The notes: generated by a model not told the origin, from the sequence alone. Shown: positions 3,006 through 59,955, numbered from the stretch's first letter. The stretch: DNA of 64,000 bases from an uncultured Methanosarcinales archaeon (GCA_964390375.1 CAYMIF010000001.1:45460-109459), one strand, 5' to 3'. A program made the numbers and translations.

Positions 3006-4046
3006 TCATGTTACCAGATTCTTTGGCTTGTTTTTCAGCCATGCCTCGATGTTGTCAATCATCATGTCGTTTCCTATCCTTGCTGTGACGTCTGTGTTAT
3101 ATGCAATATGAGGCGTTGCGAGAATCTTTGGGTGTGCTTGGATCTTCCTGTAGTATGGATCTGCGGTATCTCCAACATGGATGCTTCCTGTGTCCATAGC
3201 TGCGCCTGCGAGTATTCCCCGGTCCAGTGCTTCAATTATAGCATCTGTGTCGTATATCTTTCTTCCGGTCACTGTTATGAAAAAAGACCCGGTTTTCAAT
3301 GATAAGAAAAATTCGTTGTTTAGAATCTCTTTTGTTGTAGGGTTTGAACTGAGACAGTCCACAACAATATCTGCGGATTTTGCTTTTTGAATAAGATTGT
3401 CTCCTCTCCTGAAATAAGTAACATCCATCTCAAGGGCCTCGGCAATTGCCCCGACCCGCGAACCAACGTTTCCTTTTCCCAAAATAGTCATCTTTTTTCC
3501 TTTTAATCCTATTGTTCTATCTGCGCCTTTTTTTTGGGTCTAGGTGTGTCGTGTTTATATATCTTTGAAACTCACGACGGCTATTATGAAATCCTATCCT
3601 ACTTCACCGATGTTTCACATCGGTTACGCCTGGCCACGAGAATATTTATGAAATAAATATTCTCTCTCATGGCACAGACGGCTAGGATTTCATAATAGCC
3701 ACTCACGACAAAGATTGAGCATCATCCCGATGACCCATTCAGATACTGCGTGTTTGTTGCAGCCAGGAGACCTTGCGAGAAAAACATTGTTTTTTTTTGC
3801 TTTTTGTGCATCGAACCAGCTTGTTCCGACAAAAGGGACCGATATAAACTTGTCCTTGAGTTCCTGGTACTTCTGCTTTAGGCCAAATTTTCCAGAGCAA
3901 ATTATGTCGGCCTCCTGAACCCGCCTGAGCCAGGCATCATGGTCAGGAGCATAATCATCATAAAAAAAAGCTTCTCCCATAGACTTCAGTCTCTCAATCT
4001 GATCAGGCAGGAGGTCCATGTGCTGAGCTATTATTATCTTTTTCAT
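3006..4046 (-). pseudogene. D-isomer-specific 2-hydroxyacid dehydrogenase family gene, interrupted by a MITE insertion (3579-3700) and carrying an apparent 1-nt frameshift in an A8/T8 run (3528-3535)
   Basis: The N-terminal catalytic-domain fragment (ORF 3690..4097, ...FVGTSWFDAQKAKKNNVFLARSPGCNKHAVSEWVIGMMLNLCRE) runs into the element and stops (CREWLL*). The C-terminal NAD-binding fragment (3006..3491) starts MTILGKGNVGSRVG, which is the GxGxxG Rossmann motif. Manual re-joining after removing the element, one TSD copy and one A from the homopolymer gives ...LNLCREFQRYINTTHLDPKKGADRTIGLKGKKMTILGKGNVG. This matches the usual linker between the two domains. Confidence 0.55.
3579..3700 (+). mobile_element. 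122-bp MITE-like element, GGCT-terminus family, variant 1, with a 9-bp TSD
   Basis: Terminal inverted repeats GGCTATTATGAAATCCTA...TAGGATTTCATAATAGCC. Perfect direct repeats ACTCACGAC at 3570-3578 and 3701-3709. The internal core is hairpin(CCGATG..CATCGG)-CGCCTGGCC-hairpin(GAGAATATTTAT..ATAAATATTCTC)-TGGCACAGACG. The element lies inside a coding sequence. Confidence 0.65.
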
Positions 4047-4109
4047 CGTGAAATCAGGAAGGAATCTGATATATTTAAATCTTCTTTTTGAAATCAAATC
4101 AAGATTCTG

Positions 4110-7100
4110 TCATCTTATCTCTACATAGAATACTATCTCTTCAGTAAATCCCTTGTATGAATTCAGCTTTTCTGGTATGCGTATTTCGAATCCGTATGTG
4201 CCATAGCTTCCTGTCTGACCTGAGTTGTAGCTTGTGTAGAATATCAGGTCCTCCTCTTCGGCTATGTCAAACTCGTCATCAAGCGAATCGCTTGTGTCCC
4301 ACAGGATTCCTGTCTTGAAGCTGCTTGAGTTCTCAGTCGAATTTATCATCGAGACATTGTAGATCGGAAGGCCGTATAGTGTGATGTTCTGCATCTCCTT
4401 TGGAATGGTTGAATCAATGCTCCAGGTGGCATTTATCGAATCAGACCTGTTGGATATGTTCAGGACGATATCCATGTCCAGGAAATCCTGCGACGCTGTT
4501 GTTCCGTCCTTTTTCCTCCCTATTGCCTGCAGGTCGTTTACGCTGAAGACAGAATCTGCGTCTGCAGCGTATACATTGAGTATCTGGCCTTCTGTCATGT
4601 TCTTGAGGGTTGTCAATATGTATCCCAGCGCGAGCCTTCCTGTTGCGTTTCCGTAGTAATAGTTGTAGGATTCTTTCTGAATTCTGAACCATGTACTGTA
4701 AGTATTCTTATTTCCTGAGGTGTCATTTGCATATACTGTTATGTTGTAACTTCCTGATGAATTAGCAAAATCGAAAGTTGCATTGTATACATCATCAAGG
4801 TCATTGTCAGTCATATTGACTATCAAGGTGTTTTTATTCCATGTGATGTTAGCATAAACATTGTCAATCCCTGTATTATCTGTGACATTTGCTGTTATTT
4901 CGATTATGGAAAATATAATGAATTCATCTTCCTCAGGCCAAACATCTTTGATCAAGGGTATTGATGAGTCGAGAGTAAATTGCCATAACGATGAGTTTAC
5001 ATCGCTTAAATCATCACTTGTTCGAGTGAACCAGTGATAGGTATTATCTGATAGATCTGCATCATCTCTTATAGAGTCTGTTGTTCGTGATGAATTCAGT
5101 ATTCTTGTCTCATCAATGCGGCCATTGAAGTAGTTCGGACCAGCTGAACCGAGAGAATCTTGATTAACTGTTGCTCCGATACCGCCTTCGTCAGCATGCG
5201 AGCTGATTGAGGAATACGAGGCTGTTGTAGTGTTTTTCAGTAGACCATCCAAGAATATTGACATATTTCCTCCATCAAATATTGCTGTTATGAGGTGCCA
5301 TCCTGAAGTATCTGTGTAGTTGGTCGTGATCAGAGTCTTTGTTCCTCCTCCAGATGTTGCGAATTCAAGGATTGTTGAGTTCAGGCGAAGGGCGAAACCG
5401 TCAGATCTTCCTCCTTCTTCGTATATCGTCTGTATGCCAGCAAGCGCGTCGGGCTTTATCCAGATCTGGACAGTCTTGTTGTCAAATGGGCTGTTGAAGA
5501 AGCTTTCGTTCAGAAGCCAATATTGAGATACCCCGTCATAATCGAAGGCTCCTGCGAATTTTCCTCCATTCTCTATGAATGTCGGACAGTTTGTTGTGCA
5601 GGTCCTGTCGTGGTTTTCAGCTGAGGATGCGAAATTCTTAACTAATGTTGAGTTTTCGCCATGTTCTGATCTGTTATCAAAATGCCAGAGTGCTTCTGTT
5701 TCTGCAGTCATATTTAATACCGGCGCATCCCATGTATATGAAATCAATGTGTTATTAGATATATCACAGAGCCTGAAGAGAAGATCATCAGAAGATTCTG
5801 CTGCATCTGAACTGAATATATCCAGACAAAGTAGCTCGGTGTCGTTGTCCTCTACTCTTGCCTGAAGGCCGACAGAAGATGAGGCTATCCTTGAGTTGTT
5901 TTCAGGATTCACTAAAAATGCTGCTGGTGGCTGGTCTTCCTGTGTCTGTGCTGTATCATTTATCCAAAGCTCATTTAGATTGTTATATATGTCTGATGTC
6001 CTTGTACCTATCTCATATATTGTATTTGGAGCCAAGTCTGAGATGTTTGTGTAGTTTTGGCTTAGATTTGAATAGAAGCTTCCGTTGATCCATATCTCTG
6101 TGCGGTAGAAATCAGAATCAGATGGGTTTGTCCAGTTCCAGATTATCCAGGTCTTTGATGTCTTTGTTTCATCAAGATTTGTCACGCTTGCAGGAGGGGT
6201 ACGGTCTTCATAGTATGTGACATTGAAGTAGAATGCATCCCAGTATATCTCGTATTGTCCTGGTCCGCCGCTTCCAGAGTGGACCAATTCTGATTTTGCA
6301 ATAGCACTTGTAGCGTTTGATCCGAAGAAAACCCCGCATGTCCAATCTTCATCTGATGTTATGTCGACGCAGGTTATCCCAGAAGGTTCTGTTGTACCTG
6401 GGCAGGTGTTTGTGACTGCTGTATAGTTTGCTCCCTGATCAGCGTCAACTGATATATCACATGTCATTATGTCCGAAGTGTCAGACCACCATTTATAACA
6501 GAACTGAACCGATTCGACCAGTATACAATTCTCTATTGTGTTATTTGATGTGTTTGTCCTGATTCCTGCCCAGTATCCTGATTTTTCCACAGGATGGTTC
6601 TCAACTATAATGTCGTCGTAGAAAAGTGCGGGTCCTGGGTATTTCCTATCACATGCATCACCCCATGTACCTGCTGCAGTTGCAGCGTCCTCAGCTGAAC
6701 AGTTGTTGATTGTCATCTGAAGGCTTAATGGAAGCTCTGGAACGATGTCTATCCACCATGTCTCGTTGCCTGGATTGTAGTTCTCAGTACCATGGAAATA
6801 TGCTGTTATATTGTTCATTGAGGTATTGTTGAACAGGATGTTTTCCTGGTAAGGAGATGTCCCGTTGTATAGAAGCGATCCGTTCTGGTATATTGTTATG
6901 TTTCCGTCTCCTTTCAGAAGAGTTGCCTGGATTGTGACAAATGTGTTGTTTTCGGCTGTTATGTTAGACCTGTATCCATTGAGCGTCAGCTCAATTGATG
7001 AATCTGCTCTTGAAATATTCAAGGTAGCCTGAATCTCGGATGATGTGTAGTTCTGCGTCTGGGTTGAATTACAGATGTATAGGTATTCAGCAACATCCAA

Positions 7101-10100
7101 TGTCTGTACGTCCGGATTTGCGACAGGACTTGCGTTTCTGTACAGCAAAGGTGTAATCTGGGAATCTGCACCTTTGCATGATATATTTGTCTGATTCGAG
7201 TATGTAGTGTTCCATCCTGGCTGAGCTGAAAGAGTCAGATTCGGGTCTGCTCTCGCTATCGTGAAATACCATACATCTGTCATGTTAATATTACCTGCTG
7301 AATCATTTGCATATGACTTCCAGTAGAACGAGCCTGCCGGAAAGACCTGCTGGAAATTGTATACATTGAGTGTTATCTCATTCATTGTATAGTTTGTTGG
7401 AACTTTGGAGAAGTTGCTTTCGAAAAGAACATCTTCTACTTTCACATCATCTGTCCAAGTTATATTGAATGAACTGTTCATCGAAGGCTTGAATATTGAG
7501 ACTATGTCGGTTTTATTGGCTGACCATTTTGGTGGATAATCCGGGATTTCCTGTGTTGTTGCATTGACCCACCAGGTCTCTGAATCTGAAGTGTAATTCT
7601 GGTTTCCATTGTATAGTGCAGTTATGTTGTAAAACCCCTCTGTATTGAAAAAGGTCATATTTTCTGAGGGGAGTGTGCTATTGAAGATAAGAGTATTGTT
7701 GTTGTAGACCTGCAATATTCCGGACCCAGATATGAAATCAGCTGAAATATTGAGTGATGTTCCAAGTTGAATCGTGCGATTGTTTCTTGATCCATTCAGA
7801 TACAGTGCGACAACTCCTGCTGCTTTTGTTACATTCAACAATGTCCAGGACGAATTATATGTAAAATTCTGAGTCTGGGATATATTGCATGTGTAGTTGT
7901 AGCTGCCTGCACCGAGTGTTTGGATGTCAGAAGTACCTGAAATCAGTGTTGAGTTCCGATAAAGGGCAGGAGTTATCTGAGTCGTATTGAGTGAACAGGT
8001 AATATTTGTCTGTGTGCCATATGTAGCCGTATCTGTCGGATCTGCTGATATTGTCAGGCCGGGATCTGCCCGCAAGATCGTGAAATACCATTTATCTGAG
8101 AGGTTCCATTGTCCTATTGAGTCGTTGGCATGAGAGGTCCAGTAGAATGAGCCGGCTGGGAGTATCGAGGTGTAGTTGAAGATATTTGCTGACTGGTTTG
8201 TCATAGTATAATTTTGCTTTGTTCCTGAGAAATTGCTTTCAAATAATGACGTGTTCAGGCCATAATAATCTTCCCAGGTGATGTTGAATGTGCTATCGGT
8301 CGTCTCGGAATAGTAGATGGGCGTGAATGATGAATTTCCTGACCAATATGGAGGATAGTCTGGAGGCGGGCTGTAGGAGACATTGAAGTATAATACATCC
8401 CAAATCACGTCATAATTTCCCGGGCCAGCAGAGCCACTATGCTGTATCTCTGATTTTGCGATCGCTCCTGTCGGAGTTTCTCCAAAGAAATTACCGCATT
8501 GCCAGTTTTCCGAGGCAGTCACGTTAACACATGTCATGACTGCTGGCTCAGCAGTTCCAGGGCATGCAGCAGATACTGCAGTGTAGCTGTTTCCATAGTC
8601 TGAATCTATGCTTATATCGCAATTCTGTGTTCTTGTGGTAGCTGCCCACCATTTGTAGCATATCGTGACACTGTCAATGCTATCGCAGTCTGTCACTGAT
8701 GAATTTGTCGAGTTTATTCTTACTCCTGCCCAGGTTGTTCCTGATTTTGATATCTTGTGTATCTCCCTTGCTGCGTCTTCATAATAAAGCGTTTCCCCTG
8801 GATAAGCATTGTCACATGCGACATTCCATGAACCTGAAGCAGATGCCAGTTCCTGGGCTACGCATTTTTGGATTCTCATCTCTCCAAATGCAGGATCGTC
8901 TGGTGTAAGAAGGAATGTGTAGTTTTGGCCGGGTTTTATGTCCATTATCTTGACCCAGCTGCCAAAGCATTTTTGAGCAGTAAAATTCCATTCTTTGCAT
9001 TTATAGAGCTCTGTTCCCTTTGCTGTGGCTGTGACTGTCGCATTCGTGAAATTCAGCATTGCCGGATCAATCGCATATGATTGGATATAATCCTCTATCT
9101 CTACATCCTCTATACCAAGGTTGATAGCTCCTTTATACTCTATGCTTCTGAAATCTATCTGCTTGACAGCAGATGTCAGATTTCTTAATCTAATTGAATC
9201 TATCTTATTTTGGTCTTCTGGATTAGTCTGTCTCTTGATAAAGCTCTCTTTCTTTTCCAGAGGCAACTTGAAGTACGCTGGGATGCTTTTTGCAAGACCA
9301 TCATATTCCAATGATACCTGGTGTTTTAGTATGAATGTCCCTTCAGTTATGTTTTCAGAGTGTATTTTGAAATCTGATGTGATTTGTTCTTTTGGCCTTA
9401 TCTTATCAGGATCTGAATATTTTCTTTCATCCCTGTATAATACGCTGCTCATGTTGTCATATGTCATTATAGAATCCTCATAGTAGAGTATCAATGTTAT
9501 ATTGCTTATATTAAGTTCCTTTGGTATGCTGCTCTTCAGGATGTTGTCCTGCTTTGTGAGTTCGGTCCTATAGTAGAAATTATCCTCACTGAATAATACT
9601 ATCTCTTGAGTCCTGTTCAAAAGCTTTCTTGATAAGTCTGGTGTCACTTCTATCAGCTTCTCCAGGTCTTTTTCGACTATCGTAATCTTAAATGTGCTTT
9701 TAGGTTCTGTATCATCATCTGTGTCTTGGCTTTCCTGTCTTTCATTATCTTCTGAATCTATTTTGATTTCGGGATCATACTTCTCTTGGGTATCAATGAC
9801 TTGTTCTGGTCCCTGCTGCACCTCAGCCACTATGTTGTCCTTCTGAATCTTTGGTTTTTCCTGTTCTTTGTTTCTCCTGTCTATTATCTTGTCTATCCAG
9901 TCGACTGTGTAATATCTTCCTCCGTGATTCAAGATGAATTCGATGCTGCTAATGTTCGCCCTGATCGGCATTTCTGCATAAATCTTATATCCTTCCTTTC
10001 TAGGGTTCAGAAGGTATATTACCTGTCCATCGCTGGCTGTTCCCGAGAATGTGAGATCTTTGTATGAGAAATGACCATCCAAATATATGTTAATCGATGT

Positions 10101-10238
10101 CTTATAATCATCTATCTCAAGCACAACCAGCTCTTTTGGTTCTGATTGTTCAGATAATGAGAAAGATGATATGAGGATGATTACTGTAGCTAACAGTATG
10201 CTTAATAATACTATTTTCAATCCTCTTTTCTTATCCAT
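4110..10238 (-). CDS. giant (2042 aa) surface glycoprotein with a signal peptide, two tandem ~500-aa repeats and a LamG/concanavalin-like domain
   Basis: One uninterrupted ORF. The N-terminus is MDKKRGLKIVLLSILLATVIILISS (a signal-like sequence). NxS/T sequons are extremely dense. There is an internal duplication (DYPPYWSGNSSF...YWTSHANDS... and DYPPKWSANKTD...YWKSYANDS...). A LamG-like segment reads FDYDGVSQYWLL...GWHLITAIFDGG...FNGRIDETRILN. Confidence 0.7.
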   Translation of the reverse strand: MDKKRGLKIVLLSILLATVIILISSFSLSEQSEPKELVVLEIDDYKTSINIYLDGHFSYKDLTFSGTASDGQVIYLLNPRKEGYKIYAEMPIRANISSIEFILNHGGRYYTVDWIDKIIDRRNKEQEKPKIQKDNIVAEVQQGPEQVIDTQEKYDPEIKIDSEDNERQESQDTDDDTEPKSTFKITIVEKDLEKLIEVTPDLSRKLLNRTQEIVLFSEDNFYYRTELTKQDNILKSSIPKELNISNITLILYYEDSIMTYDNMSSVLYRDERKYSDPDKIRPKEQITSDFKIHSENITEGTFILKHQVSLEYDGLAKSIPAYFKLPLEKKESFIKRQTNPEDQNKIDSIRLRNLTSAVKQIDFRSIEYKGAINLGIEDVEIEDYIQSYAIDPAMLNFTNATVTATAKGTELYKCKEWNFTAQKCFGSWVKIMDIKPGQNYTFLLTPDDPAFGEMRIQKCVAQELASASGSWNVACDNAYPGETLYYEDAAREIHKISKSGTTWAGVRINSTNSSVTDCDSIDSVTICYKWWAATTRTQNCDISIDSDYGNSYTAVSAACPGTAEPAVMTCVNVTASENWQCGNFFGETPTGAIAKSEIQHSGSAGPGNYDVIWDVLYFNVSYSPPPDYPPYWSGNSSFTPIYYSETTDSTFNITWEDYYGLNTSLFESNFSGTKQNYTMTNQSANIFNYTSILPAGSFYWTSHANDSIGQWNLSDKWYFTILRADPGLTISADPTDTATYGTQTNITCSLNTTQITPALYRNSTLISGTSDIQTLGAGSYNYTCNISQTQNFTYNSSWTLLNVTKAAGVVALYLNGSRNNRTIQLGTSLNISADFISGSGILQVYNNNTLIFNSTLPSENMTFFNTEGFYNITALYNGNQNYTSDSETWWVNATTQEIPDYPPKWSANKTDIVSIFKPSMNSSFNITWTDDVKVEDVLFESNFSKVPTNYTMNEITLNVYNFQQVFPAGSFYWKSYANDSAGNINMTDVWYFTIARADPNLTLSAQPGWNTTYSNQTNISCKGADSQITPLLYRNASPVANPDVQTLDVAEYLYICNSTQTQNYTSSEIQATLNISRADSSIELTLNGYRSNITAENNTFVTIQATLLKGDGNITIYQNGSLLYNGTSPYQENILFNNTSMNNITAYFHGTENYNPGNETWWIDIVPELPLSLQMTINNCSAEDAATAAGTWGDACDRKYPGPALFYDDIIVENHPVEKSGYWAGIRTNTSNNTIENCILVESVQFCYKWWSDTSDIMTCDISVDADQGANYTAVTNTCPGTTEPSGITCVDITSDEDWTCGVFFGSNATSAIAKSELVHSGSGGPGQYEIYWDAFYFNVTYYEDRTPPASVTNLDETKTSKTWIIWNWTNPSDSDFYRTEIWINGSFYSNLSQNYTNISDLAPNTIYEIGTRTSDIYNNLNELWINDTAQTQEDQPPAAFLVNPENNSRIASSSVGLQARVEDNDTELLCLDIFSSDAAESSDDLLFRLCDISNNTLISYTWDAPVLNMTAETEALWHFDNRSEHGENSTLVKNFASSAENHDRTCTTNCPTFIENGGKFAGAFDYDGVSQYWLLNESFFNSPFDNKTVQIWIKPDALAGIQTIYEEGGRSDGFALRLNSTILEFATSGGGTKTLITTNYTDTSGWHLITAIFDGGNMSIFLDGLLKNTTTASYSSISSHADEGGIGATVNQDSLGSAGPNYFNGRIDETRILNSSRTTDSIRDDADLSDNTYHWFTRTSDDLSDVNSSLWQFTLDSSIPLIKDVWPEEDEFIIFSIIEITANVTDNTGIDNVYANITWNKNTLIVNMTDNDLDDVYNATFDFANSSGSYNITVYANDTSGNKNTYSTWFRIQKESYNYYYGNATGRLALGYILTTLKNMTEGQILNVYAADADSVFSVNDLQAIGRKKDGTTASQDFLDMDIVLNISNRSDSINATWSIDSTIPKEMQNITLYGLPIYNVSMINSTENSSSFKTGILWDTSDSLDDEFDIAEEEDLIFYTSYNSGQTGSYGTYGFEIRIPEKLNSYKGFTEEIVFYVEIR

Positions 10239-30297: not shown

Positions 30298-31029
30298 ATG
30301 CTCAAGGCAGATTTCCACATACATATATCTGAAGATCCTTATGACCGGGATGCTGCGCGTTATTCAGGAAAGGAACTCATAGACCGTGCTGCAGAACTTG
30401 GATATGATGTCTTGTCAATCACCATGCATTCCACTTATTTTGAAGATTTTCGGCTGACAAAATATGCCCGCAAGAAAGGTATACTTCTGATACCTGGTAT
30501 TGAACTTCGAGTTTCTGACCGGCATGTGCTTATAATCAATCCAGATCCTGATCAGCTCTATCATGTCAAGAAGCTATCTGATCTGAGGAAAATCAAGGGA
30601 ACCGGGTGCCTGATCATGCCAGCTCATCCTTATCTTTATTTTGGAAAAGACCGTGAAAGAGAGCTTGAGGTGAATGCAGAACTGTTCGATGCCATCGAAT
30701 TCTGCCATTTCCATCTCGGACCTATTGATTTTAATAAAAAGACCGAGAATTTCTCAAGAAGGCATAAATTACCAATGTTTGGATCCTCTGACACACATCT
30801 TAAATGCCAGTTCGGAACCACTTATACGATGATCGATTCAAAAAAAGATACTGATTCAGTGATATCTGCTGTGAAAAAAGGAAAAGTCAAGGTGGTCTCT
30901 CCTGATCTTAAAATAACAATCTTCCTTAGAATATTCCTGCGGTTCAGCATCTCTATGCTGAGAACCATTGTGTTTGGGAAGAAGAAACAAACTGAGAGAT
31001 ATTCTGTTATAAAAAAGGGCTTTGTGTAA
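30298..31029 (+). CDS. PHP-domain metal-dependent phosphoesterase. Its last codons and stop lie inside a MITE terminus
   Basis: DFHIHIS, MPAHP and GSSDTH are PHP His/Asp ligands. The stop codon sits within the inverted repeat of the element at 31018-31196. Confidence 0.6.
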   Translation: MLKADFHIHISEDPYDRDAARYSGKELIDRAAELGYDVLSITMHSTYFEDFRLTKYARKKGILLIPGIELRVSDRHVLIINPDPDQLYHVKKLSDLRKIKGTGCLIMPAHPYLYFGKDRERELEVNAELFDAIEFCHFHLGPIDFNKKTENFSRRHKLPMFGSSDTHLKCQFGTTYTMIDSKKDTDSVISAVKKGKVKVVSPDLKITIFLRIFLRFSISMLRTIVFGKKKQTERYSVIKKGFV

Positions 31030-31196
31030 AAAGTACTACTTCGCTTACTCCCTAAGCTGCGCCTGGCCCTACGCCTTGGCCCGCAGACCTGCCATGTAGG
31101 GCGTGCGCCAACCATAGATGGTTGGCTTAGCCCAACTGAGAATATTGCCTAAAGATATATATTCTCGTGGCACAGACGTACTTTTTACACAAAGCC
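31018..31196 (+). mobile_element. 179-bp MITE-like element, GGCT-terminus family, variant 2
   Basis: A perfect 19-bp inverted repeat GGCTTTGTGTAAAAAGTAC / GTACTTTTTACACAAAGCC. It is flanked by ATAAAAAAG at 31009-31017 and 31197-31205. It shares the core CGCCTGGCC...TGGCACAGACG with variant 1 but has a longer internal structured module. Confidence 0.6.
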
Positions 31197-31205
31197 ATAA
31201 AAAAG

Positions 31206-31327
31206 GGCTATTATGAAATCCTATACTACTACGTTTTTACTGCGTAAAAACTTCGCCTGGCCCCGAGAATATTTATTTCATAAATATTCTCTCTCGTGGC
31301 ACAGACGCATAGGATTTCATAATAGCC
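31206..31327 (+). mobile_element. 122-bp MITE-like element, variant 1, directly abutting the variant-2 copy
   Basis: Termini GGCTATTATGAAATCCTATAC...ATAGGATTTCATAATAGCC. Flanked by ATAAAAAAG at 31197-31205 and 31328-31336. It is nearly identical to the reverse-oriented copy at 50627-50748. Confidence 0.65.
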
Positions 31328-31373
31328 ATAAAAAAGTAAAAATTTATATATCTTAAAACACATTTATTTTATC

Positions 31374-31992: not shown

Positions 31993-32106
31993 GGCTCCAT
32001 CTAATAAATACTACTCCGCTTGCTGCGCAAGCTTCGCCTGGCCACGGGAAGCTTTATTGCATAAACCTTCCCTCCCTTGGCACAGACGCATTTATTGGAT
32101 GAAGCC
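31993..32106 (+). mobile_element. 114-bp MITE-like element, variant 3
   Basis: Termini GGCTCCATCTAATAAATAC / GCATTTATTGGATGAAGCC (16 of 19 bases match). Perfect 9-bp direct repeats CACAGAAGA at 31984-31992 and 32107-32115. The core is hairpin(GCTTGC..GCAAGC)-CGCCTGGCC-hairpin(GGGAAGCTTTAT..ATAAACCTTCCC)-TGGCACAGACG. Confidence 0.55.
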
Positions 32107-32232: not shown

Positions 32233-32336
32233 GCCCCCGTAGCATAGTAGCTATTGCGGCAGACTTGTATCATTTTGAATCATAGATTCGTTTTTTAGAA
32301 ATCTGCAGGTCGTGGGTGCAAATCCCACCGGGGGCT
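32233..32336 (+). tRNA. intron-containing tRNA, anticodon read as TGT (Thr), with a ~31-nt intron after position 37
   Basis: Acceptor stem GCCCCCG/CGGGGGC. Anticodon stem GCAGA/TCTGC. Loop CTTGTA followed by intervening sequence 32270-32300. T arm GTGGG-TGCAAAT-CCCAC. Discriminator T. No encoded CCA. The isotype call depends on where the intron is placed. Confidence 0.7.
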
Positions 32337-35300: not shown

Positions 35301-38300
35301 GGATCTCCTCGTAAGGCCCGAGGTCTCCGAGGGCAAATTCTATCTTTGGATCCCGCTGGATTATGGTGAAATTGACATCTGAGGAGATGTGGTCTGTTGT
35401 GTTGATTATGTCCTTTGGTATCGTTATCCTCAGCCTGGCCTGAGCTTTTTTCAGCGGTGTCGGGTTCCTGATAGTATCTATTATCTCTGTGTGGTTCTCG
35501 TGAACCCTGAATCTTGTGTGCTTCTTTATCTGGTTTGAGAGCTCGTAGGTGATGGAGTAGTTCTGTATTATGAATGCAGGCGGTTCTTTGATCTTCCGGC
35601 CAGAAGAATCGCTGTCATCATCCTGCTCTTCTGGGGTGGTCTCTTCTGCTGGCTCTTCTGTCTGGGGTATGATGTCTGGCGAGCCTCCTCCGAATGAACT
35701 GCTGCCGGAGCTGACAGATGAGCCTTCGTCTTCATCTTCATCTTCACCTACACATGTGCAGGTGTTTGTGCCTGAATGAGCCCATGTGCCTCTGTTTCCG
35801 CAGACTCCGCCTGTTATTTTTCCGCCATCTTCGTCATCACAGTCGAAGATGTCTATGTTCGTGCAGATCCCGGCGTAGGCTATACCTATCTGGCCGTCGT
35901 CGTCATTGTCCCAGTCCTCGTCTGCCAGCTGGTCGCAGTCATTGTCGTATGAGTCGCAGATCTCTGCTGTACTGTAGCTTACCTGCGCTGACCAGGCGCT
36001 CTTTTGGTGGCTTGAGTCGATGGACTGGACCTGGACATAGGCGCATCGCGGAGGTATGTCGAGAGATATCTCCTGCAAAAGCTGCATGTTTCCGAAGTAG
36101 CCCTGAGGCGGGTTGGTCGAAAGAGGGTTAAGGCTAGAGAGGATGTTTTGGTTGGTCGGGCTGGAGCCTATCTTTAGGTTATAGTAAAGGACAGGGGATT
36201 CTGCATCTGAGCCTGCGGTCCAGTTGATTTTCATGCGGCTGTTGTTGTATGAGATGTTTACTGCTGTCGGCGGAGCGGGGAGCGTGTTGTTCTTTAGTTC
36301 ATTTGCATCAGAGCGATAGATGCGGGTGTTGGCAGACTGGGATTCGTTGAAGCCGGTGTAGAAGATGTCGAGGTTGTTGTCGTTGTTGTAGTCGGCGAAT
36401 GCGAGGGAGCCTGCCCATGATCCGTCGAAGGTGTTGAATGTGTCTTCGATGAAGGTTGTGCCGTTGCTGTAATAAAGTTTTGTTATTGAATCTGTCCATG
36501 TGCCTCTTGTCGTACCTGCTAATAATAGGTCAAGAAGGCCGTCGTTATTGTAATCTCCCAGTGTGAGGCTTCCTTTCCAGACTGCAGTCAGGTTCTGGGA
36601 CCACGCCGGCGAATATGTGAGGTTATTTGCGTTGTTTTGGTATACCTTTGCTATCTTATCTGTACAGTTAGCTGGAGAGCTGGTTCCTGAACTGCATCCA
36701 ATGAGAACAATGTCCATGTATCCGTTGTTATCTATGTCACCTGATGTAATGTGGCCGAATTTCACTCCTGTCAGGTTTTGGGTGTTTGTGAATGATGCTG
36801 CTTGATTGTTCATGTATACTTTGGTCGTGAATTCGTCATCTGCATTGCCATACCTGCCAGAGACAATGATATCTGTGAAATTGTCATTATCAAGATTTAC
36901 TGCGTTTACTGAACATTCTGTGACACCCATGAAATTTATCACTGATTTTGAGAAGGAATCTCCGTTGTTTGTGTATAATGATGTCGAATAGGCGGCACTA
37001 TCGCTGGTTCCACAAGTGATGAGGTCTATGAGCCCGTCATTGTTGTAGTCCAGCCATGCGTGGGAGGAATAATATACAGGATTTATTCCGTGGGAAGAGT
37101 CATCATAGGTCCAGCCGGATTGGTATCTGATGATGTAGAGTTTTTTTTCAATTGGATCAATCTGTCTTTGACCTGAGGTGATTATGTCGTATGTTTCGTC
37201 ATTGAAAGGATCTGCCAAAGAGATTCCACCGTACATTAGGTCAGGGAGATTTATCTCATCATGAGGTGTGAAAAATGCATTGGTGTTTGAATAGACATAT
37301 CCTTTGGTTGTTGTTTTATCCAATACTTCTGGACCTGATATGAAAATATCATGATAATGATTTGAATCCAGGTCAGCTAACAATAATGAGCTTCCGAATG
37401 ATGTACCATACACTCCCTGCTCATCCAGGTCGTATGCTGTGGAATTCGGCTTGACTGTTATCGAAAATGTGTGGTTCAGTGTCTCGTATCCAGACATGTT
37501 GCATCTGATCGTGACCTGCTTGTCTCCAAGGGATGTGAAATTGTAATCAATAGTATGGACTGCTCCTGTGTAGGACATGTTGTGCCATGTGCTATCCAGG
37601 CTTATGGTGCAGTTTTCTGATATCGGAAGGTGGGATGTCGTGTTTGAGTAGTTTGCAGTAAAGGTGACAGTTTGGTTTATCATGAGGCGGGATGGTGAAT
37701 AATCTGTCTCTAGAAGGCTGTTTGATGCAGCAGAATAATTGCTGAATCCAGAGACATTGAATGTGAGATTTCCATTAGTGTAATCAATCACTGTGCAGTC
37801 TGAGCAGACCTGGTCGTTTCTGAGGATTGCCGGAATCGCAGAGAAATTCAGGTTGAATATAGTTATGTTGGCTCTTCTGTTCAGGCCCTGGGCAGCGGAA
37901 ACATCTATGTCTATATTATTCTGTGAGATGTTCACTATCGAGTTTAAGTCTAGGTTGGAGACGTCGATATTTTCATTAAACATTATCATGCCGAATCCTG
38001 GCAAGCCGATCGATGCGGCTGAGACATTGGATACATCAGAGACTTCAGAGAAGTTTGTTGTGAGGGAGTTGTAATAGTTTGAGAATATCGGTTCAGAAGA
38101 CCTGTTGAGAGTGATTGTGAGGGCTGTGTTGGATGAGTGCGTGTAATCCATGTTGTATTGGTTGTATCCGGATCTTTGGAAGTAGATGGTGTAGTTTTGT
38201 ATTGAGGATGTTCCGTTGTTCCTGTCGCTTGTGAGGACAAGCCTTGCCTTGCCTGGACTGTCTGTTGCGGTGTCGTAATGCATTCGGTTGTCTGTATCGT

Positions 38301-42198: not shown

Positions 42199-42789
42199 AT
42201 GGTAGGATTAAGTGTTAATGAAAGGAAAGCGCTTCTGGTGCTGCTAAAGGATTTTACTAGCTACTATAATGCTAATTCATTGGCAAATGAGATAGGAATC
42301 AGCCATGTGGGAGCACAGAAGATGTTTAGGCGGTTTGAACAAGATGGCGTGACTGTTTCAAAGAAAATCGGGAAGTCAATAGTGCATAAGATCAGGCTGG
42401 ATGATGATTACAATTCTAAGCTGCTGTCCTTTCTCTTGGCTGATGAAGCAAATAATTTCAGAAGGTGGAGAGAGGAATTCAGAAGCCTGTCTACGGGAAA
42501 CAGGATTGTCATGATGTTTGGCTCAGCACTGAAAAACTATAAGGAGGCAAGGGATATAGATCTCATGCTGGTCTTGCCTTTTGATCAGTCAACAGATATT
42601 AATAAAGCAGTAGATGAAAAAAGAGAAATCCTTCCGAAAAAACTGCATGTAATAAAGCTGAGGATAGAAGATTTCCAGAAAAATCTTAAAAAAAAGGAAG
42701 ATGTATTCGTAGACGTTATCAAGAATGCAGTAGTACTCTATGGACAAGACCAGTTCGTAGAGGTGCTTAAAACTGTCACAGGCTTCTAA
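42199..42789 (+). CDS. wHTH plus minimal nucleotidyltransferase (MNT) domain protein
   Basis: N-terminal HTH (ANSLANEIGISHVGAQKMFRRF). The MNT signature is MMFGSALKNYKEARDIDLMLVL (GS...D.D motif). Confidence 0.55.
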   Translation: MVGLSVNERKALLVLLKDFTSYYNANSLANEIGISHVGAQKMFRRFEQDGVTVSKKIGKSIVHKIRLDDDYNSKLLSFLLADEANNFRRWREEFRSLSTGNRIVMMFGSALKNYKEARDIDLMLVLPFDQSTDINKAVDEKREILPKKLHVIKLRIEDFQKNLKKKEDVFVDVIKNAVVLYGQDQFVEVLKTVTGF

Positions 42790-42793
42790 TCAT

Positions 42794-43291
42794 ATGAAAT
42801 GGTGCCTGAAAAAGGCTCAGCGTGAGATTCTGGAATGTGAAAAGAAAGGCCTTAGAAAGAAGCACAGAGGCCTACTGAAAACCAAACCAAATATCTCTGA
42901 AGCAAAAAAGCATATACTGAAAGCCAGACATAATTTTCGTGTAGTGATTATCCTCGAGAAGGAGGATATCTTTGATTGGTCTGTCAATGCAGTTTTTTAT
43001 ACTATCTATCATTGTTTCTTGGCTATTGCTTTTAGATTCGGCTATGAGAGCAGAAACCAGTCTTGTACCATCTCTTTGATCCAATGCTTGATTGAAAAGG
43101 GTATGATAGATCTTGATATGAAATTCGTCAATCTCCTCAAATACAATGAAAAGGAAAACAGTATCATAGATATGAGGGAAGAATATACATATGGGATTGA
43201 GATTGATATCGCTGATAATAAGATCATGAAAGAACTTATCCAAGACTGCAGGGAAGTTATCGATATGGCTATGAGGATAGTGCATGATTAA
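42794..43291 (+). CDS. HEPN-like domain protein
   Basis: 165-aa helical protein immediately downstream of the MNT gene. AKKHILKARHNF...AVFYTIYHCFLAIAF is HEPN-like. Confidence 0.4.
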   Translation: MKWCLKKAQREILECEKKGLRKKHRGLLKTKPNISEAKKHILKARHNFRVVIILEKEDIFDWSVNAVFYTIYHCFLAIAFRFGYESRNQSCTISLIQCLIEKGMIDLDMKFVNLLKYNEKENSIIDMREEYTYGIEIDIADNKIMKELIQDCREVIDMAMRIVHD

Positions 43292-47923: not shown

Positions 47924-48046
47924 GGCTATTATGAAATCCTAGCCTACTTCACCGATGTTTCACATCGGTTCCGCCTGACCCCGAGAATATTTACTAATGT
48001 AAATATTCTCTCTCATGGCACAGACGGCTAGAATTTCGCAATAGCC
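47924..48046 (+). mobile_element. 123-bp MITE-like element, variant 1
   Basis: Termini GGCTATTATGAAATCCTAGCC...GCTAGAATTTCGCAATAGCC. It is flanked by A-rich direct repeats AAAAAAAAG (47915-47923) and A9G (48047-48056). Confidence 0.6.
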
Positions 48047-48094
48047 AAAAAAAAAGCAAATATTTATAATCCCTGAGTCTTCAGAAAAATTATC

Positions 48095-48613
48095 ATGCCT
48101 CTTGCAGTAACCCATGTACTCCTGACGATTATCTGCGTTGACCTGTATCGGGACTATATCCTCAAGAGCAGGAAATATTTCACACTGCATACTGTCTTTA
48201 TCGCTGGTTTTGCAGGGCTTCTGCCGGACATTGACATGGTGTTTCGGATATTTGCCAAGGCTTTTGAAATCAGCCTTCCTGCTCTTCTGGACCATAAGGG
48301 AATCACCCACACCCTTTTGTTCGGGCTGCTGTTCTTGATTCCTGGTCTGGTGCTGTGGCGGATGAAGAAGAAAAAGTTCGCTGTCTACTGCTTTGTGGCT
48401 GTTTTTGGGATACTGTTCCATGTACTTCTGGACTTCCTGCTGGCAAGTGACTATTCTGCCGGAATTATGCTTTTGTTTCCGTTCAGCATGCAGACATGGA
48501 AACTGGGACTGCTCCCTATGGATTCTACACTATATGCTGCAATAGATGCAGTGATACTGCTGGGGTGGCTCTGGCATGAGGAGATGAAGCATAAGATCAT
48601 TGACTACATATGA
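48095..48613 (+). CDS. membrane-bound metal-dependent hydrolase (DUF457/YdjM-like)
   Basis: The N-terminus MPLAVTHVLL and conserved His residues in TM segments (HKGITHTLLFG, LFHVLLDF) fit the family. Confidence 0.55.
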   Translation: MPLAVTHVLLTIICVDLYRDYILKSRKYFTLHTVFIAGFAGLLPDIDMVFRIFAKAFEISLPALLDHKGITHTLLFGLLFLIPGLVLWRMKKKKFAVYCFVAVFGILFHVLLDFLLASDYSAGIMLLFPFSMQTWKLGLLPMDSTLYAAIDAVILLGWLWHEEMKHKIIDYI

Positions 48614-48685
48614 TTATTTTATGATAATGAGGATCGCTTGATTGAGAGTGAATTTTTAAATATCTTCTCCTGTTACCAGGATAAA

Positions 48686-49213
48686 ATGAGATTGTTCATC
48701 GCAGTCGATCTAGAGCCAGAAAAGGAATATTTTCTTGGGATAAGGGATAAGATTGACAGAAGCTTGTTCTCTGGCTCTTTTCCTAAAACATTCCATATAA
48801 CGCTGAAATTCCTCGGCGAGGTCGATGATGGCGCGCTTGATGAGATAAAGGAAAGACTCTCTTATGTTAGGTTTCGGCCCTTTACTGCCGGGTTCGATTG
48901 TGTCGGTCATTTTCCTGCCGGTCGAGACATCAGGGTGATCTGGTGCGGGATGTCTGATTCCAGAGAAATTACCGAACTGGCAGATAAAGTCGACCAGGCC
49001 CTGGATGATATGTTTGAGCATGATAAGAGATTCCATCCTCATGTCACCCTTGCCAGGGTCAAGAAGGTCAATGACCGGAACGCTCTTCTCGGGAATATCA
49101 AAAATATCAAGTTAGAGAAGAAAAGGGTTGAGGCCAGAAGCATAAAGCTTATCAGAAGCACGCTTCGTCCGCAAGGACCTTCTTATGAGACCTTGCTTGA
49201 GGTCAAGCTTTGA
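48686..49213 (+). CDS. RNA 2',3'-cyclic phosphodiesterase / 2'-5' RNA ligase (LigT/ThpR family)
   Basis: Two H-x-T-x motifs (HITLKF and HVTLAR) in a ~175-aa protein starting MRLFIAVDL. Confidence 0.8.
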   Translation: MRLFIAVDLEPEKEYFLGIRDKIDRSLFSGSFPKTFHITLKFLGEVDDGALDEIKERLSYVRFRPFTAGFDCVGHFPAGRDIRVIWCGMSDSREITELADKVDQALDDMFEHDKRFHPHVTLARVKKVNDRNALLGNIKNIKLEKKRVEARSIKLIRSTLRPQGPSYETLLEVKL

Positions 49214-49219
49214 GCAATC

Positions 49220-50494
49220 CTATACTACATAAACCTTTTTTGTTTCCTGCTCTCTTTTCCTGGCTTTGTCCATCGCATCTGAGAGCCTTCTTAGCGCCAG
49301 TATCGCTCCGTTGTCGTATGGACTGAAATCCTCAAGCATCTCCGAAGCATCCTGAAGTATCAGAACACCTTGGGCGTCATCAATTCCCTGTATTATCCTC
49401 GGGAAGTCTCCCTGTCCGACAACGCCTCCATGCATACGCTTCTGCACTGTTTTATGTATGTATGATACCACCTGATAAGTCTCCTGATCCGGCTTGTCCT
49501 CTCCAATGCAAAGGCGTTCTATAGTCTTCTGAACATCCCCAGCACTGTAAGGTTCAGCAACCTCTGTCTCAACCATCGGTCTTGGATTACCATGCCCCTG
49601 CCTGTAGGCCCTAAGTGAATATCCGCTGTACCATCGAGTCTCTCCTATCCTGAAAACCTGTACCTTTTCTTTCTTTCCTAGGTTTACTATCCTGAACCTG
49701 CTGATACCAAGATAATCCGAAGCTTCCTTCTGCGTCACTATGTCTGTCAGGACGTATCTTGCCTGAGGGCTGAGATATTTCCGTCCATTGACCTGGACCT
49801 GCTCAAAGTAATCAGGGAATGATCTGACCAGGTGCGCAATCCTCTTTATCATCTGTTCCTCGCTGTGCCTGGTTATCCCAGTAAGGTTGGCAACAGCTTC
49901 CCTTGCGGTCGAGGAGATCGAGTAATACCATGTGCCATTATGCATTATTCTGTTTTCCCTGCTCCAGAGCCTTGATCTAAGTTCATTCTCTCCTATCGGA
50001 CTTATCCAGTATCTCTTGAGCCGAGCTATACTGTCAATCGGATCATCTCCAGCACAATGGTTCGCTATAGTCGAATTGGAAACACAAAGCTCATCAGCTA
50101 ACTGCTCGATGGTCTTCCAGTCTTCGATGACCGGCATGAATTCAGCGATCATCCTGTTCACTGCCGGCTGAAATAACTTCCCTCTTGGACTTTTCAGTCT
50201 CCTGTTCTGTTCGAAGAAATGCTTTATCTGGACATATCTCAAATTCTCGATGAGATCCTCTGCCTGGGCCATGGTCATGCCCTCTCTTGCAGCTTTTGCT
50301 GTCCGCTCGAGCGCCTCCCTTATCCCTGGATTATATCTTTCATATAACTCATGGGCCTCTCTTGCTTTCCTTACTATCTCCGGCGGCCCTTCGTCTGCTT
50401 TTCCCCAGAAGAATGATCTACTGAGCCGAAGCTCTGAATGCCTTGGCCTCTCATGCAGAATCTCATCTATGCTCCTTACGATTCTTACTGCCAT
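49220..50494 (-). CDS. hypothetical protein with HTH-like segments. It looks GC-richer than its surroundings
   Basis: 424-aa ORF with two HTH-like stretches (IEQLADELCVSNSTIANH, EASDYLGISRFRIVNL). A MITE copy lies immediately upstream. Confidence 0.4.
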   Translation of the reverse strand: MAVRIVRSIDEILHERPRHSELRLSRSFFWGKADEGPPEIVRKAREAHELYERYNPGIREALERTAKAAREGMTMAQAEDLIENLRYVQIKHFFEQNRRLKSPRGKLFQPAVNRMIAEFMPVIEDWKTIEQLADELCVSNSTIANHCAGDDPIDSIARLKRYWISPIGENELRSRLWSRENRIMHNGTWYYSISSTAREAVANLTGITRHSEEQMIKRIAHLVRSFPDYFEQVQVNGRKYLSPQARYVLTDIVTQKEASDYLGISRFRIVNLGKKEKVQVFRIGETRWYSGYSLRAYRQGHGNPRPMVETEVAEPYSAGDVQKTIERLCIGEDKPDQETYQVVSYIHKTVQKRMHGGVVGQGDFPRIIQGIDDAQGVLILQDASEMLEDFSPYDNGAILALRRLSDAMDKARKREQETKKVYVV

Positions 50495-50626
50495 GCTTGT
50501 GGGAATCAGGTCATGATATTTATAATTACTACAATATAAGTAGAAATTCGTTGAAAGATAGTGTCAATAGAGATATCATCTTGTTTCTTTTCACATCAAC
50601 CATCAATCGGCAATCTTTGCTTGTCC

Positions 50627-50748
50627 GGCTAATATGAAATCCTATGCGTCTGTGCCACGAGAGAGAATATTTATGAAATAAATATTCTCGGGGCCAGGCG
50701 AAGTTTTTACGCAGTAAAAACGTAGTAGTATAGGATTTCATATTAGCC
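50627..50748 (-). mobile_element. 122-bp MITE-like element, variant 1, reverse orientation
   Basis: It is the reverse complement of the 31206-31327 copy apart from a few substitutions. Flanked by TGCTTGTCC (50618-50626) and TGCTTGTTC (50749-50757), which match at 8 of 9 positions. Confidence 0.65.
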
Positions 50749-59175: not shown

Positions 59176-59281
59176 CTTTAATTACTATTAATTTTAATAT
59201 TAATTATAATAATTTTTATATTATTAGAAATACTATTAATTGTTGTATTTAAGTTTTTCTAAAAATTTCTTTAAGAATTTT

Positions 59282-59536: not shown

Positions 59537-59629
59537 CTTATTTCACCCCACATATTGGCAGGGGAATACGTGCATTAATTTAAAATTAACTGCTGGGATA
59601 GCGGCAAAACTAAAAACATGTCTGTCATG

Positions 59630-59908
59630 GGCTATTATGAAATCCTATCCTACCTGCGCTTTTGGGAATGAATTCCCAAACCGGTGAGCAAAGCTCACAG
59701 TTTACGCCGCAGAGCAGCGAGGTTGGGCATAAAGCCCAACTAAAAATATTCACTAATGGTTATATATTCCGCCTGGCCCTACGCTCTGGCCCGCAGACCA
59801 GCCATGTAGGGCATGCGCCAACCATAAATGGTTGGCTTAGCCCAACTGAGAATATTGCCTAAAGATATATATTCTCATGGCACAGACGGCTAGGATTTCA
59901 TAATAGCA
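59630..59908 (+). mobile_element. 279-bp composite MITE-like element with variant-1 termini, an extra three-hairpin module and the long variant-2 core
   Basis: Starts GGCTATTATGAAATCCTATCCTAC and ends TAGGATTTCATAATAGCA. Perfect 9-bp direct repeats TCTGTCATG at 59621-59629 and 59909-59917. The internal region matches 31060-31180 of variant 2 and adds hairpins TTGGGAATGAATTCCCAA, GTGAGCAAAGCTCAC and GTTGGGCATAAAGCCCAAC. Confidence 0.6.
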
Positions 59909-59955
59909 TCTGTCATGAAAAACTATTTATACTAAAACGTCACACAATTATAAAA

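Follow-up and report, generated by a model that had tools for sequence, protein, structure and literature searches.

Archaeal MITEs in which a covarying three-way-junction core is kept while the ends change

Seven short repeated elements lie between the genes of a 64,000-nt stretch of chromosome from an uncultured Methanosarcinales archaeon (GCA_964390375.1 CAYMIF010000001.1:45460-109459; this whole stretch is called the window here, and positions are counted from its first letter). An earlier note on this DNA had listed seven copies of a MITE-like element, and all seven were found in place on reading of the sequence. They are 114-279 bp long, consist of hairpins throughout and have no coding capacity. 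Each starts with GGCT, and six end with AGCC; the copy at 59630-59908 ends with AGCA, so that the claim of common ends, allowing for a one-base variant, is borne out. Terminal inverted repeats of 18-19 bp with 0-3 mismatches are confined to the element ends, and the 9-bp direct repeats outside them, when re-inspected, were present in 7/7 copies, five perfect and two at 8/9. As the elements combine terminal repeats and 9-bp target duplications with an intergenic position, several copies and a lack of coding capacity, they are MITEs and products of transposition. When the entire window was scanned with a covariance model, filters off, no eighth copy appeared.

The copies differ in their ends, which form three classes, and in their length; the strand given here is the one that folds. 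Copy 1 (3579..3700, - strand, 122 bp) is a short form with class-1 ends, GGCTATTATGAAATCCTA, and is duplicated at its target as ACTCACGAC (3570-3578 and 3701-3709). Copy 2 (31018..31196, - strand, 179 bp), with class-2 ends, GGCTTTGTGTAAAAAGTAC, and a long middle module of 99 nt, abuts copy 3 (31206..31327, - strand, 122 bp), which has class-1 ends and the same 9-bp target; ATAAAAAAG is present three times, at 31009-17, 31197-205 and 31328-36, and is common to both. Copy 4 (31993..32106, - strand, 114 bp) has class-3 ends, GGCTCCATCTAATAAATAC / GGCTTCATCCAATAAATGC, between repeats of CACAGAAGA at 31984-92 and 32107-15. Copy 5 (47924..48046, - strand, 123 bp, class-1 ends) is the most decayed, with three mismatches in the right terminal repeat, an altered core box and a duplication of A8G versus A9 (47915-23 and 48047-55, 8/9). 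Copy 6 (50627..50748, + strand, 122 bp, class-1 ends) is inverted with respect to the other six, is 120/122 identical to copy 3 and carries an identical T-to-A change in both terminal repeats; its duplication reads TGCTTGTCC versus TGCTTGTTC (50618-26 and 50749-57, 8/9). Copy 7 (59630..59908, - strand, 279 bp, class-1 ends with the right tip AGCA), between repeats of TCTGTCATG at 59621-29 and 59909-17, contains the long middle module of copy 2, and an extra branched module replaces its first hairpin. Contigs of a short-read assembly of this organism are broken within copies 5 and 6, as a repeat would lead one to expect. A Logan contig of this organism begins within copy 5.

All window copies have the same layout, CGCCTGGCC followed at some distance by TGGCACAGACG. 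The box TGGCACAGACG occurs exactly seven times in the window, always inside a copy (10 matches with one mismatch allowed, against 0.62 expected by chance), and CGCCTGGCC occurs six times, the variant CGCCTGACC standing in its place in copy 5. The class-1 terminal repeat has 10 matches in the window, at element ends only (0.07 expected), and the class-2 and class-3 repeats are each confined to the two ends of their own element. Long and short modules had been said to recombine between terminus classes, and copy 7 to have variant-1 ends around a variant-2 core; both statements agree with the middle modules of copies 2 and 7, which lie between class-2 and class-1 ends, respectively, and are identical at 93/99 positions.

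The copies would have been inserted by a transposase acting in trans and making staggered target cuts 9 bp apart. From the 18-19 bp ends starting with GGC(T) and the 9-bp duplication, this enzyme is probably an IS903-type transposase of the IS5 family. IS903 (1056 bp) has 18-bp inverted repeats, GGCTTTGTTGAATAAATC, and a 9-bp duplication, and in the plasmid collection GGCTTTGTTGAATAAATC was found at both ends of the IS903-type element of pLVPK; two features that mark the IS903 group, a 9-bp duplication and repeats of about 18 bp beginning with GGC, are present in the window. The terminus classes match the IS903 inverted repeat at 10-13/18 positions (classes 2 and 3 at 12-13/18). At positions 5-18 the agreement is 9/14 for class 2 (shuffle p 0.016) and 8-9/14 for class 3 (p 0.006-0.03), and class 1, at 6/14 (p 0.29), has no significant likeness beyond GGCT. 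The three classes, earlier described as unrelated, are not fully so: all share GGCT and a length of 18-19 bp, and they resemble IS903-type ends, although this likeness is only modestly significant. Like IS903-group MITEs, the elements have 18-19 bp repeats from GGCT and a 9-bp duplication and are noncoding, multi-copy and intergenic; unlike them, they have a class of ends with no significant similarity beyond GGCT and relatives with other ends and 8-bp duplications, and no partner transposase was found for them in the sequence covered. Pfam scans detected no transposase domain in the window, neither the window nor some 300 kb of related loci yielded a transposase with matching ends or an autonomous element with the same ends, and phmmer with an IS903-type transposase gave 0 matches at E up to 10 among 833 ORFs of the window and these loci.

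A search for the core in other archaea yielded about 45 copies outside the window, and the family is thus not confined to this genome. About 35 true copies came from a single genome scan and are spread over 11 MAGs of uncultured archaea (Methanosarcinales, Woese-/Nanoarchaeota and others); a further 9 were obtained by scanning metagenome contigs. Ends of other types (GGCC, GGTT, GAC, GCTT) are seen on relatives in other MAGs, seven to eight of the foreign copies have clean duplications of 8 or 9 bp, and some relatives have 8 bp where the window copies have 9. The family spans several archaeal lineages, and the same core is carried on several end types, with duplications of either length, in both Methanosarcinales-like and DPANN-like archaea. 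At the gathering threshold, Rfam 15 recognizes a single tRNA in the whole window and nothing in the elements; at E up to 10, one Woesearchaeota copy and three of the window copies give weak snoRNA or miRNA-hairpin noise and nothing else. No score came near the threshold of any family, including those of self-cleaving ribozymes, C/D and H/ACA RNAs and OMEGA/IS605 RNAs. As the earlier note had supposed, no equivalent is described in the literature searched, and the plasmid and phage collections contain no match to the elements. We regard the core as a good candidate for a new RNA family.

On one strand, covariation and the consensus fold define the element interior as a three-way junction. In P1 the terminal inverted repeats pair with each other. 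The hairpin P2 covaries freely and, in longer relatives, has a conserved G.U/U.U/U.G step, and P3 has a variable tip and a nearly invariant base, 5'-CGUCUG-U-GCCA...UGGC-CAGGCG-3', with a conserved U.G pair. An unpaired (G)RAGUAG separates P2 from the 3' half of P1, and the long forms arise from extra modules at the tips of P2 and P3. The core had been described as two hairpins, each followed by a conserved motif; the hairpins and both motifs are there, but the two boxes are not separate units, as they pair with each other in a single helix that forms the base of the second hairpin.

Covariation was assessed in 18 copies, all from outside the window. Across 44 pairs, 95.3% of the cells are paired, against 29-47% in slid controls, and changes on both sides occur in 28/44 pairs (in P1, in 9/10). 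None of 500 shuffles equalled the alignment on any of five measures, and the consensus energy is -52.2 kcal/mol. A covariance model, R1, which was trained solely on foreign copies and contains no window sequence, recovers 6/7 window copies with E values from 7e-14 to 2e-4, in each case on the strand predicted. For copy 1 the - strand scores 50.6 bits (E 7e-14) and the + strand 14.7 bits; copy 2 reaches 21.4 bits with filters off and 34.8 bits with default filters, copy 3 43.7 bits (E 1e-11), copies 4 (E 4e-10) and 5 39 bits each, and copy 6 43.7 bits on the + strand; copy 7 was missed in both searches, presumably because of its large insertions. Copy 4 differs from copy 1 by compensatory changes in both hairpins, and diverged copies retain the base helix through changes from U.G to U-A, C-G to U-A and C-G to U.G. 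Both boxes were part of the search pattern, so that their invariance outside the window partly reflects how the copies were found; they do vary in four copies found by the model alone. The interior of the family is better conserved than its ends, opposite to a normal MITE family. The conserved, structured core proposed earlier is therefore real, with helices supported by strong covariation in independent copies from other genomes.

These data bear on two other accounts of the conservation. Ordinary MITEs with a neutral palindromic filler, conserved through recent descent and horizontal spread, would explain why the window copies are mutually 73-98% identical, and MITE transcripts in general are predicted to form stable folds (PMC10969869). 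However, most stem positions have changed between the copies of different MAGs and yet remain paired, the core persists while terminus types and duplication lengths change, and conserved wobbles and an unpaired RAGUAG are unlike the decay of a neutral palindrome; covariation and strand asymmetry both count against such a filler, which is highly improbable. A SINE-like retroelement with an RNA intermediate, whose terminal repeats are a closing helix and whose 8-9 bp duplications are made by an unspecified reverse transcriptase/endonuclease, is barely credible. It would account for the closing helix, which covaries like an RNA stem, for the same change in both terminal repeats of copy 6 and for the strand-specific fold, but not for the GGC(T) starts and 18-19 bp ends as in IS903-type insertion sequences, nor for the fixed 9-bp duplication in the window with sharply defined ends and no tail. 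Pfam scans gave no reverse transcriptase domain in the window, and we know of no LINE-like partner in archaea.

The folding strand is the complement of the orientation in which the elements were written earlier. In each of the 33 distinct copies the complement gives the more stable fold, by 5-22 kcal/mol (mean 12; Wilcoxon p = 5e-7); copy 1, for example, reaches -63.2 kcal/mol on the - strand versus -56.3 on the + strand, and copy 7 -126.6 versus -113.2. Mismatches on the earlier-written strand are mostly A.C, and the same sites on the complement are G.U pairs, some of them invariant; the "C.A mismatch" and the "AAC/AAC loop" of the earlier strand are conserved G.U pairs on the complement.

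Three features of the flanks hint that the folded strand may form a transcription unit. First, a run of five or more T within 60 nt downstream is seen in 21/41 copies on the folded strand versus 8/41 on the other, a bias confounded by flanks that are A-rich on the earlier-written strand on both sides. Second, in 28/38 cases a divergent gene adjoins the folded strand on its 5' side, and this bias is one-sided (28 to 10 at one flank, 16 to 19 at the opposite flank). Third, TATA-like boxes are placed some 10-15 nt outside the element ends; they occur on both sides, which confounds a promoter-side bias. The start codon typically follows the TGGCACAGACG end by 50-77 nt, with the downstream gene co-oriented in 28/38 cases. 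This position just upstream of TATA-like boxes and co-oriented genes, together with the imperfect palindrome that the two boxes make, might be taken to mean that the core is a double-stranded protein-binding site or promoter-proximal module spread upstream of genes, its hairpins being incidental. Such a duplex site predicts neither compensatory changes in 28/44 pairs, nor a strand difference of 12 kcal/mol with the same sign in every copy, nor G.U pairs kept at fixed positions, and is very unlikely.

A more serious alternative, still unlikely, is that the same MITE uses its fold as single-stranded DNA, for instance in replication or in a transposition intermediate, recognized by a transposase or host protein in the manner of IS200/IS605 ends, REP/RAYT or integron attC sites. 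G.T wobbles are tolerated in DNA too, and would satisfy the strand-specific asymmetry equally well. The C-GNA-G triloop is an unusually stable DNA mini-hairpin, and such triloops make up 21/91 hairpin loops on the folded strand, or about a quarter. A role in cis in transposition would also explain an interior kept across hosts and terminus types. Nevertheless, terminal repeats with duplications of 8-9 bp indicate a DDE enzyme that acts on double-stranded DNA by cut-and-paste or copying, the IS200/IS605, REP/RAYT and attC systems lack target duplications and terminal inverted repeats, and an effect of replication direction should appear on both sides, whereas the gene correlation is one-sided. 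To our knowledge, no single-stranded structure is required in the IS5/IS903 DDE mechanism.

Among known repeats, the likeness to BOX, RUP and BIME that had been drawn holds as an analogy only, since the defining features of those families are absent here. Like ERIC/IRU, Correia (NEMIS), BOX and RUP, the elements are small, palindromic, intergenic and multi-copy, and they match the modularity of BOX and the long and short forms of ERIC; Correia and ERIC transcripts also fold, and the fold affects mRNA processing (see also PMC10969869). ERIC, Correia, BOX and RUP differ in being bacterial and genus- or family-specific, in having a TA duplication or none, and in their unrelated sequences. BOX (boxA-B-C modules) and RUP (IS630-type ends, TA duplication) were rejected as relatives on their ends and duplications, with no Rfam or blastn similarity. 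We know of no such repeat that keeps one three-way-junction core across terminus types and phyla. REP/BIME (RAYT, TnpA-REP) and IS200/IS605-derived PATEs are similar in that structure outweighs sequence and is strand-specific, and a short single-stranded motif stands beside a hairpin, GTAG in REP and RAGUAG in the archaeal elements. REP/BIME are, however, GTAG-headed palindromes of 20-40 nt with neither terminal repeats nor duplication, and PATEs likewise lack terminal inverted repeats and target duplication, whereas all seven window copies have both. In the CORE-SINEs, V-SINEs and Deu-SINEs of eukaryotes, a constant central domain is combined with exchanged parts that engage the enzymes of different autonomous partners. 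The archaeal elements, with a core kept and ends swapped, are like them by analogy only; these SINEs are retroposons whose heads derive from tRNA and whose tails derive from LINEs, and the archaeal elements have the inverted-repeat ends and fixed-length duplications that are typical of DNA transposons. Archaeal MITEs have been described in Sulfolobus (SM1-4), Halobacterium, Haloquadratum and Desulfurococcus (PMC10969869). These too are small, with terminal repeats and duplications, and moved in trans, but they belong to other lineages and sequences, and the accounts compared contain no covarying core across terminus classes or phyla.

Taken together, we favor, at a probability of about 0.6, a MITE that is moved in trans by an IS903-type enzyme and whose folded strand specifies a small structured RNA. 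The folded strand would be transcribed, and the RNA, bound by protein or acting in cis, may help the element to persist or spread. A bolder version can be offered only tentatively: a new class of mobile structured RNA, its three-way junction being a protein-binding scaffold or catalytic, which would have repeatedly captured the ends of DDE transposases and crossed between Methanosarcinales-type and DPANN hosts as a DNA-transposon counterpart of CORE-SINEs, possibly expressed by divergent transcription from adjacent symmetric TATA boxes.

The spread beyond this genome, the covarying three-way junction and the assignment of the folding strand to the complement are new with respect to the earlier observation. 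MITEs are normally defined by their ends, and their interior drifts. In these elements it is the interior that stays constant, a junction covarying on one strand, and the ends and even the length of the duplication that differ from lineage to lineage. Such repeats, present at about 110 copies per Mb, fragment short-read assemblies of the host organisms. Few structured non-coding RNAs are known in archaea; if the fold acts as RNA, the elements would add a new candidate family to these, provide a case of a functional RNA that travels on DNA transposons, and serve as a marker of gene flow between uncultured archaea of the methane cycle and DPANN archaea.

All seven elements lie between genes in what is an ordinary archaeal chromosome (~43% G+C), whose gene content looks Methanosarcinales-like and includes RadA, ScpB, YdjM, giant surface proteins with LamG and FG-GAP domains, an MCM-like ATPase, a PAS/GAF/DUF835 sensor, GyrA and Rnf subunits. 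Reading of the seven stretches (copy 1, 3579-3700; copy 2, 31018-31196; copy 3, 31206-31327; copy 4, 31993-32106; copy 5, 47924-48046; copy 6, 50627-50748; copy 7, 59630-59908) confirmed each as an element that starts with GGCT and ends with AGCC or, in copy 7 only, with the one-base variant AGCA. The 9-bp direct repeats that the earlier note placed around every copy are likewise present, five pairs being perfect and two matching at 8 of 9 positions (A8G versus A9 at copy 5; TGCTTGTCC versus TGCTTGTTC at copy 6, which is in inverted orientation). Terminal inverted repeats of all three kinds, GGCTATTATGAAATCC, GGCTTTGTG and GGCTCCATC, are found at element ends only. The core box TGGCACAGACG has seven exact occurrences in the window, all within copies, and 10 matches against 0.62 expected by chance when one mismatch is allowed; the other box, CGCCTGGCC, occurs exactly six times and as the variant CGCCTGACC in copy 5. 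Because every copy has a duplication, this family of MITEs moved recently within the window genome, and it displays every structural hallmark of a MITE save a demonstrated partner.

Copies 2 and 3 abut and are bounded by three ATAAAAAAG repeats, the middle one being common to both, so the second insertion used the 9-bp target of the first. Elements with different ends stand back to back on one 9-bp target (window 31009-31336), the target of copy 5 (A8G) has nearly the same sequence, and another tandem pair is found in a metagenome locus (L091, 3961-4215). Together, these observations suggest a target hot-spot, or a preference for A-runs ending in G. Exchange of modules between terminus classes, also proposed before, is borne out by a 99-nt middle module that is identical at 93/99 positions between a class-2-ended and a class-1-ended copy. 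The long middle module includes CGCCTTGGCCCGCAGACC at 31073-31090, or CGCTCTGGCCCGCAGACC at 59783-59800 in copy 7, a sequence that resembles the two core boxes repeated in condensed form and may have been left behind by a nested element.

The two conserved core boxes are not the separate boxes they were taken for: they pair with each other and so form a single helix, the base of the second hairpin. Read in the orientation of the earlier note, that helix includes an invariant C.A mismatch, longer relatives show a conserved AAC/AAC internal loop in their first hairpin, and most mismatches in variable stems are A.C; read on the complementary strand, each of these turns into G.U pairing. When both strands were folded, the complement (hereafter the folded strand) was more stable in 33/33 distinct copies, with a margin of 5-22 kcal/mol that averaged 12 (Wilcoxon p = 5e-7). 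The structured core inferred earlier therefore stands, on the opposite strand.

Covariation was assessed in an alignment, in the complement orientation, of 18 copies, none of them from the window. The RNAalifold consensus reaches -52.2 kcal/mol on the complement versus -28.7 on the other strand; 95.3% of alignment cells are paired and both-sided changes occur in 28/44 pairs. None of 500 column shuffles attained any of five measures, and only 29-47% of cells paired when partners were slid by 1-3 columns. The structure is a three-way junction of helices P1, P2 and P3. P1 is formed by the paired terminal inverted repeats and covaries in 9/10 pairs, with an unpaired (G)RAGUAG preceding its 3′ half. 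P2 covaries freely and has a G.U/U.U/U.G step conserved in the long class. P3 has the base 5′-CGUCUG-U-GCCA...UGGC-CAGGCG-3′ with an invariant U.G pair, and a variable tip. In diverged copies, this "invariant" helix is kept through U.G to U-A, C-G to U-A and C-G to U.G changes, indicating that selection acts on the helix itself and not on sequence alone. A covariance model trained on the 18 foreign copies (R1) detected 6/7 window copies on the predicted strand (E 7e-14 to 2e-4), with a best opposite-strand score of 14.7 bits versus 50.6 bits, and found no additional copies in the window. The long form at 59630 was missed by R1, yet it has both motifs and its complement again folds better. The core is thus conserved and structured, as had been claimed, and it is under selection for a strand-specific fold, with extra modules tolerated at hairpin tips only. 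A core acting purely as duplex DNA, or an interior that is neutral filler, would leave both the covariation and the strand asymmetry unexplained.

The family extends well beyond the window. The pattern CGCCTGGCC-N(28-45)-TGGCACAGACG, scanned across 185,579 species genomes, gave 86 loci, of which ~50, falling within genes of GC-rich bacteria, were discarded as chance matches and ~35 are AT-rich intergenic elements of the same architecture. The latter are spread over 11 archaeal MAGs. Five of these are labelled Methanosarcinales and two Nanoarchaeota; the others are one Woesearchaeota, in which five near-identical copies occur, one "Nanobdellati", one Euryarchaeota (SM23-78) and one unclassified. 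Cultured Methanosarcina species in the same scan had no match to the exact pattern. A metagenome scan added nine copies on low-GC contigs, and R1 added four diverged copies without the exact motifs. Ends outside the window vary (GGCTGTGG..., GGCTCCGTAG..., GGCC..., GGTT..., GAC..., GCTT...), and the same core is carried by different ends in distant archaea. Clean duplications there are of 9 bp (n=4) or 8 bp (n=3); many other copies lack a duplication that can be recognised, and these are presumably old insertions. Two elements, at L030 5983-6170 and on L044 (~197 bp), have class-1-like outer ends GGCTATTGTGGAAC / GGCCATTATGGAAC and a second inverted repeat, TGCCAGATGCATG, inside them, as though new ends had been put around an older element.

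As to the mobiliser, the window elements combine a fixed 9-bp duplication, inverted repeats of 18-19 bp and a GGC(T) tip, the hallmarks of IS5-family elements of the IS903 group. The IS903 repeat was checked in real records, where it adjoins aph(3′)-Ia, as it also does in Tn903; a 1056-bp element of pLVPK that contains an "IS5 family transposase" has GGCTTTGTTGAATAAATC at each end. The three terminus classes match this repeat at 10 (class 1: copies 1, 3, 5, 6 and 7), 13 (class 2: copy 2) and 12-13 (class 3: copy 4) of 18 positions, so that they are distinct, as described before, and probably not unrelated. Beyond GGCT, the similarity reaches modest significance in classes 2 and 3 (p ~0.006-0.03) and no significance in class 1; therefore, assignment of the mobiliser to the IS903 group is plausible, not proven, and the chance that the ends are IS903-like is about even. 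The 8-bp duplications and different tips of some relatives imply more than one mobilising enzyme. No IS-sized terminal-repeat pair with a duplication was found in the window or the examined loci. Pfam revealed no transposase domain in the 40 scanned window ORFs of at least 150 aa (of 52 listed), nor among the 25 commonest of the 114 Pfam families listed for 70 ORFs adjoining homologous copies, and phmmer with an IS903-type transposase query found no match among 833 ORFs.

Several features adjoin the window copies. A 2-hydroxyacid dehydrogenase ORF (3006-3539, minus strand) covers only the C-terminal half of its family, aligning to residues 160-356 of a 357-aa homologue, and no N-terminal part is detectable beyond copy 1; it is therefore probably a truncated gene adjoining the copy 1 insertion. 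An intron-containing tRNA gene of 104 nt (32233-32336, plus strand; Rfam 54 bits, missed by ARAGORN) starts 127 nt downstream of copy 4. Two giant predicted surface proteins of 2042 aa (4110-10238, minus strand) and 2757 aa (32350-40623, minus strand), with LamG, FG-GAP and Nup98-type autopeptidase domains, each have a copy near the 3′ end of their gene. Elsewhere, a HEPN-domain protein (42794-43291, plus strand) and the small unannotated ORF preceding it (42199-42789) may form a HEPN/MNT-type toxin-antitoxin pair. Three gene families directly adjoin a copy in the window and do so again in loci of DPANN-labelled MAGs: ydjM (56% identity), the 2-hydroxyacid dehydrogenase and an unannotated protein of ~200 aa (L030 5412-7296 versus window 3006-3700 and 47924-48613; L029 2196-2819 versus window 31374-31964). 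By a rough estimate, this repeated adjacency exceeds chance. An ancient insertion upstream of ydjM common to both genomes was rejected, since the orientation of the element relative to the gene differs; the insertions are therefore independent.

The MITE also fragments assemblies of the window organism. A Logan contig of run SRR7048225 (L102) that corresponds to window ~48002-50655 and carries ydjM starts within copy 5 and stops within copy 6, as expected when an assembler meets a dispersed repeat. Exact-protein look-ups, aimed at empty sites, returned only short Logan contigs ending inside repeats, and two such contigs, both from this run, are the only fetched loci that overlap the window.

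Counts of position and orientation rest on 41-45 copies. Beyond the TGGCACAGACG end, the neighbouring gene is directed away from the element in 28/38 cases, its start codon typically 50-77 nt from the core; on the opposite side, gene orientation is unbiased (16 versus 19). TATA-like boxes peak 30-41 nt outward of both core boundaries, or ~10-15 nt past the element ends. In 21/41 copies, a run of at least five T lies downstream of the folded strand's 3′ end, versus 8/41 for the other strand, a bias confounded by flanks that are A-rich on both sides of the element when read on the opposite strand. These patterns, suggestive only, fit insertion in a preferred orientation into AT-rich promoter-proximal DNA, and are compatible with, not proof of, divergent transcription from the neighbour's promoter that reads the folded strand and ends at oligo-U.

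Rfam 15 gave no match for the elements, with the whole window at gathering thresholds or with individual elements at E up to 10. Hammerhead, twister, hatchet and pistol cores, the bulge-helix-bulge motif, and C/D and H/ACA boxes found no match by eye, and neither did a K-turn, tandem G.A being absent beside the bulge. As to a viral origin, the viral-contig scan gave a single chance match in a GC-rich prophage, and blastn against plasmid and phage collections gave none. The family is not described in the literature searched on archaeal MITEs, where the core motifs as text matched only primers, so that within these resources the earlier view that no archaeal equivalent is known holds. The likeness to BOX/RUP/BIME repeats fails as membership: the elements lack the defining features of REP/BIME, BOX, RUP and IS200/605-derived elements alike. 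ERIC and Correia-type repeats, which fold as RNA, would be the nearest functional analogies, and eukaryotic CORE-SINEs the nearest for a constant core with exchangeable ends.

We estimate a probability of about 0.6 that the folded strand is an RNA. It might instead act as a single-stranded DNA structure, an unlikely alternative to which its loops lend something: 21/91 predicted loops at its hairpin tips are C-GNA-G triloops (7/91 are C-ANA-G), a type that makes unusually stable DNA mini-hairpins. The core would aid persistence of the element, perhaps through contact with a host protein or a transposase, or alternatively by acting on neighbouring transcription. As a new RNA family of archaea, the element is a good candidate.
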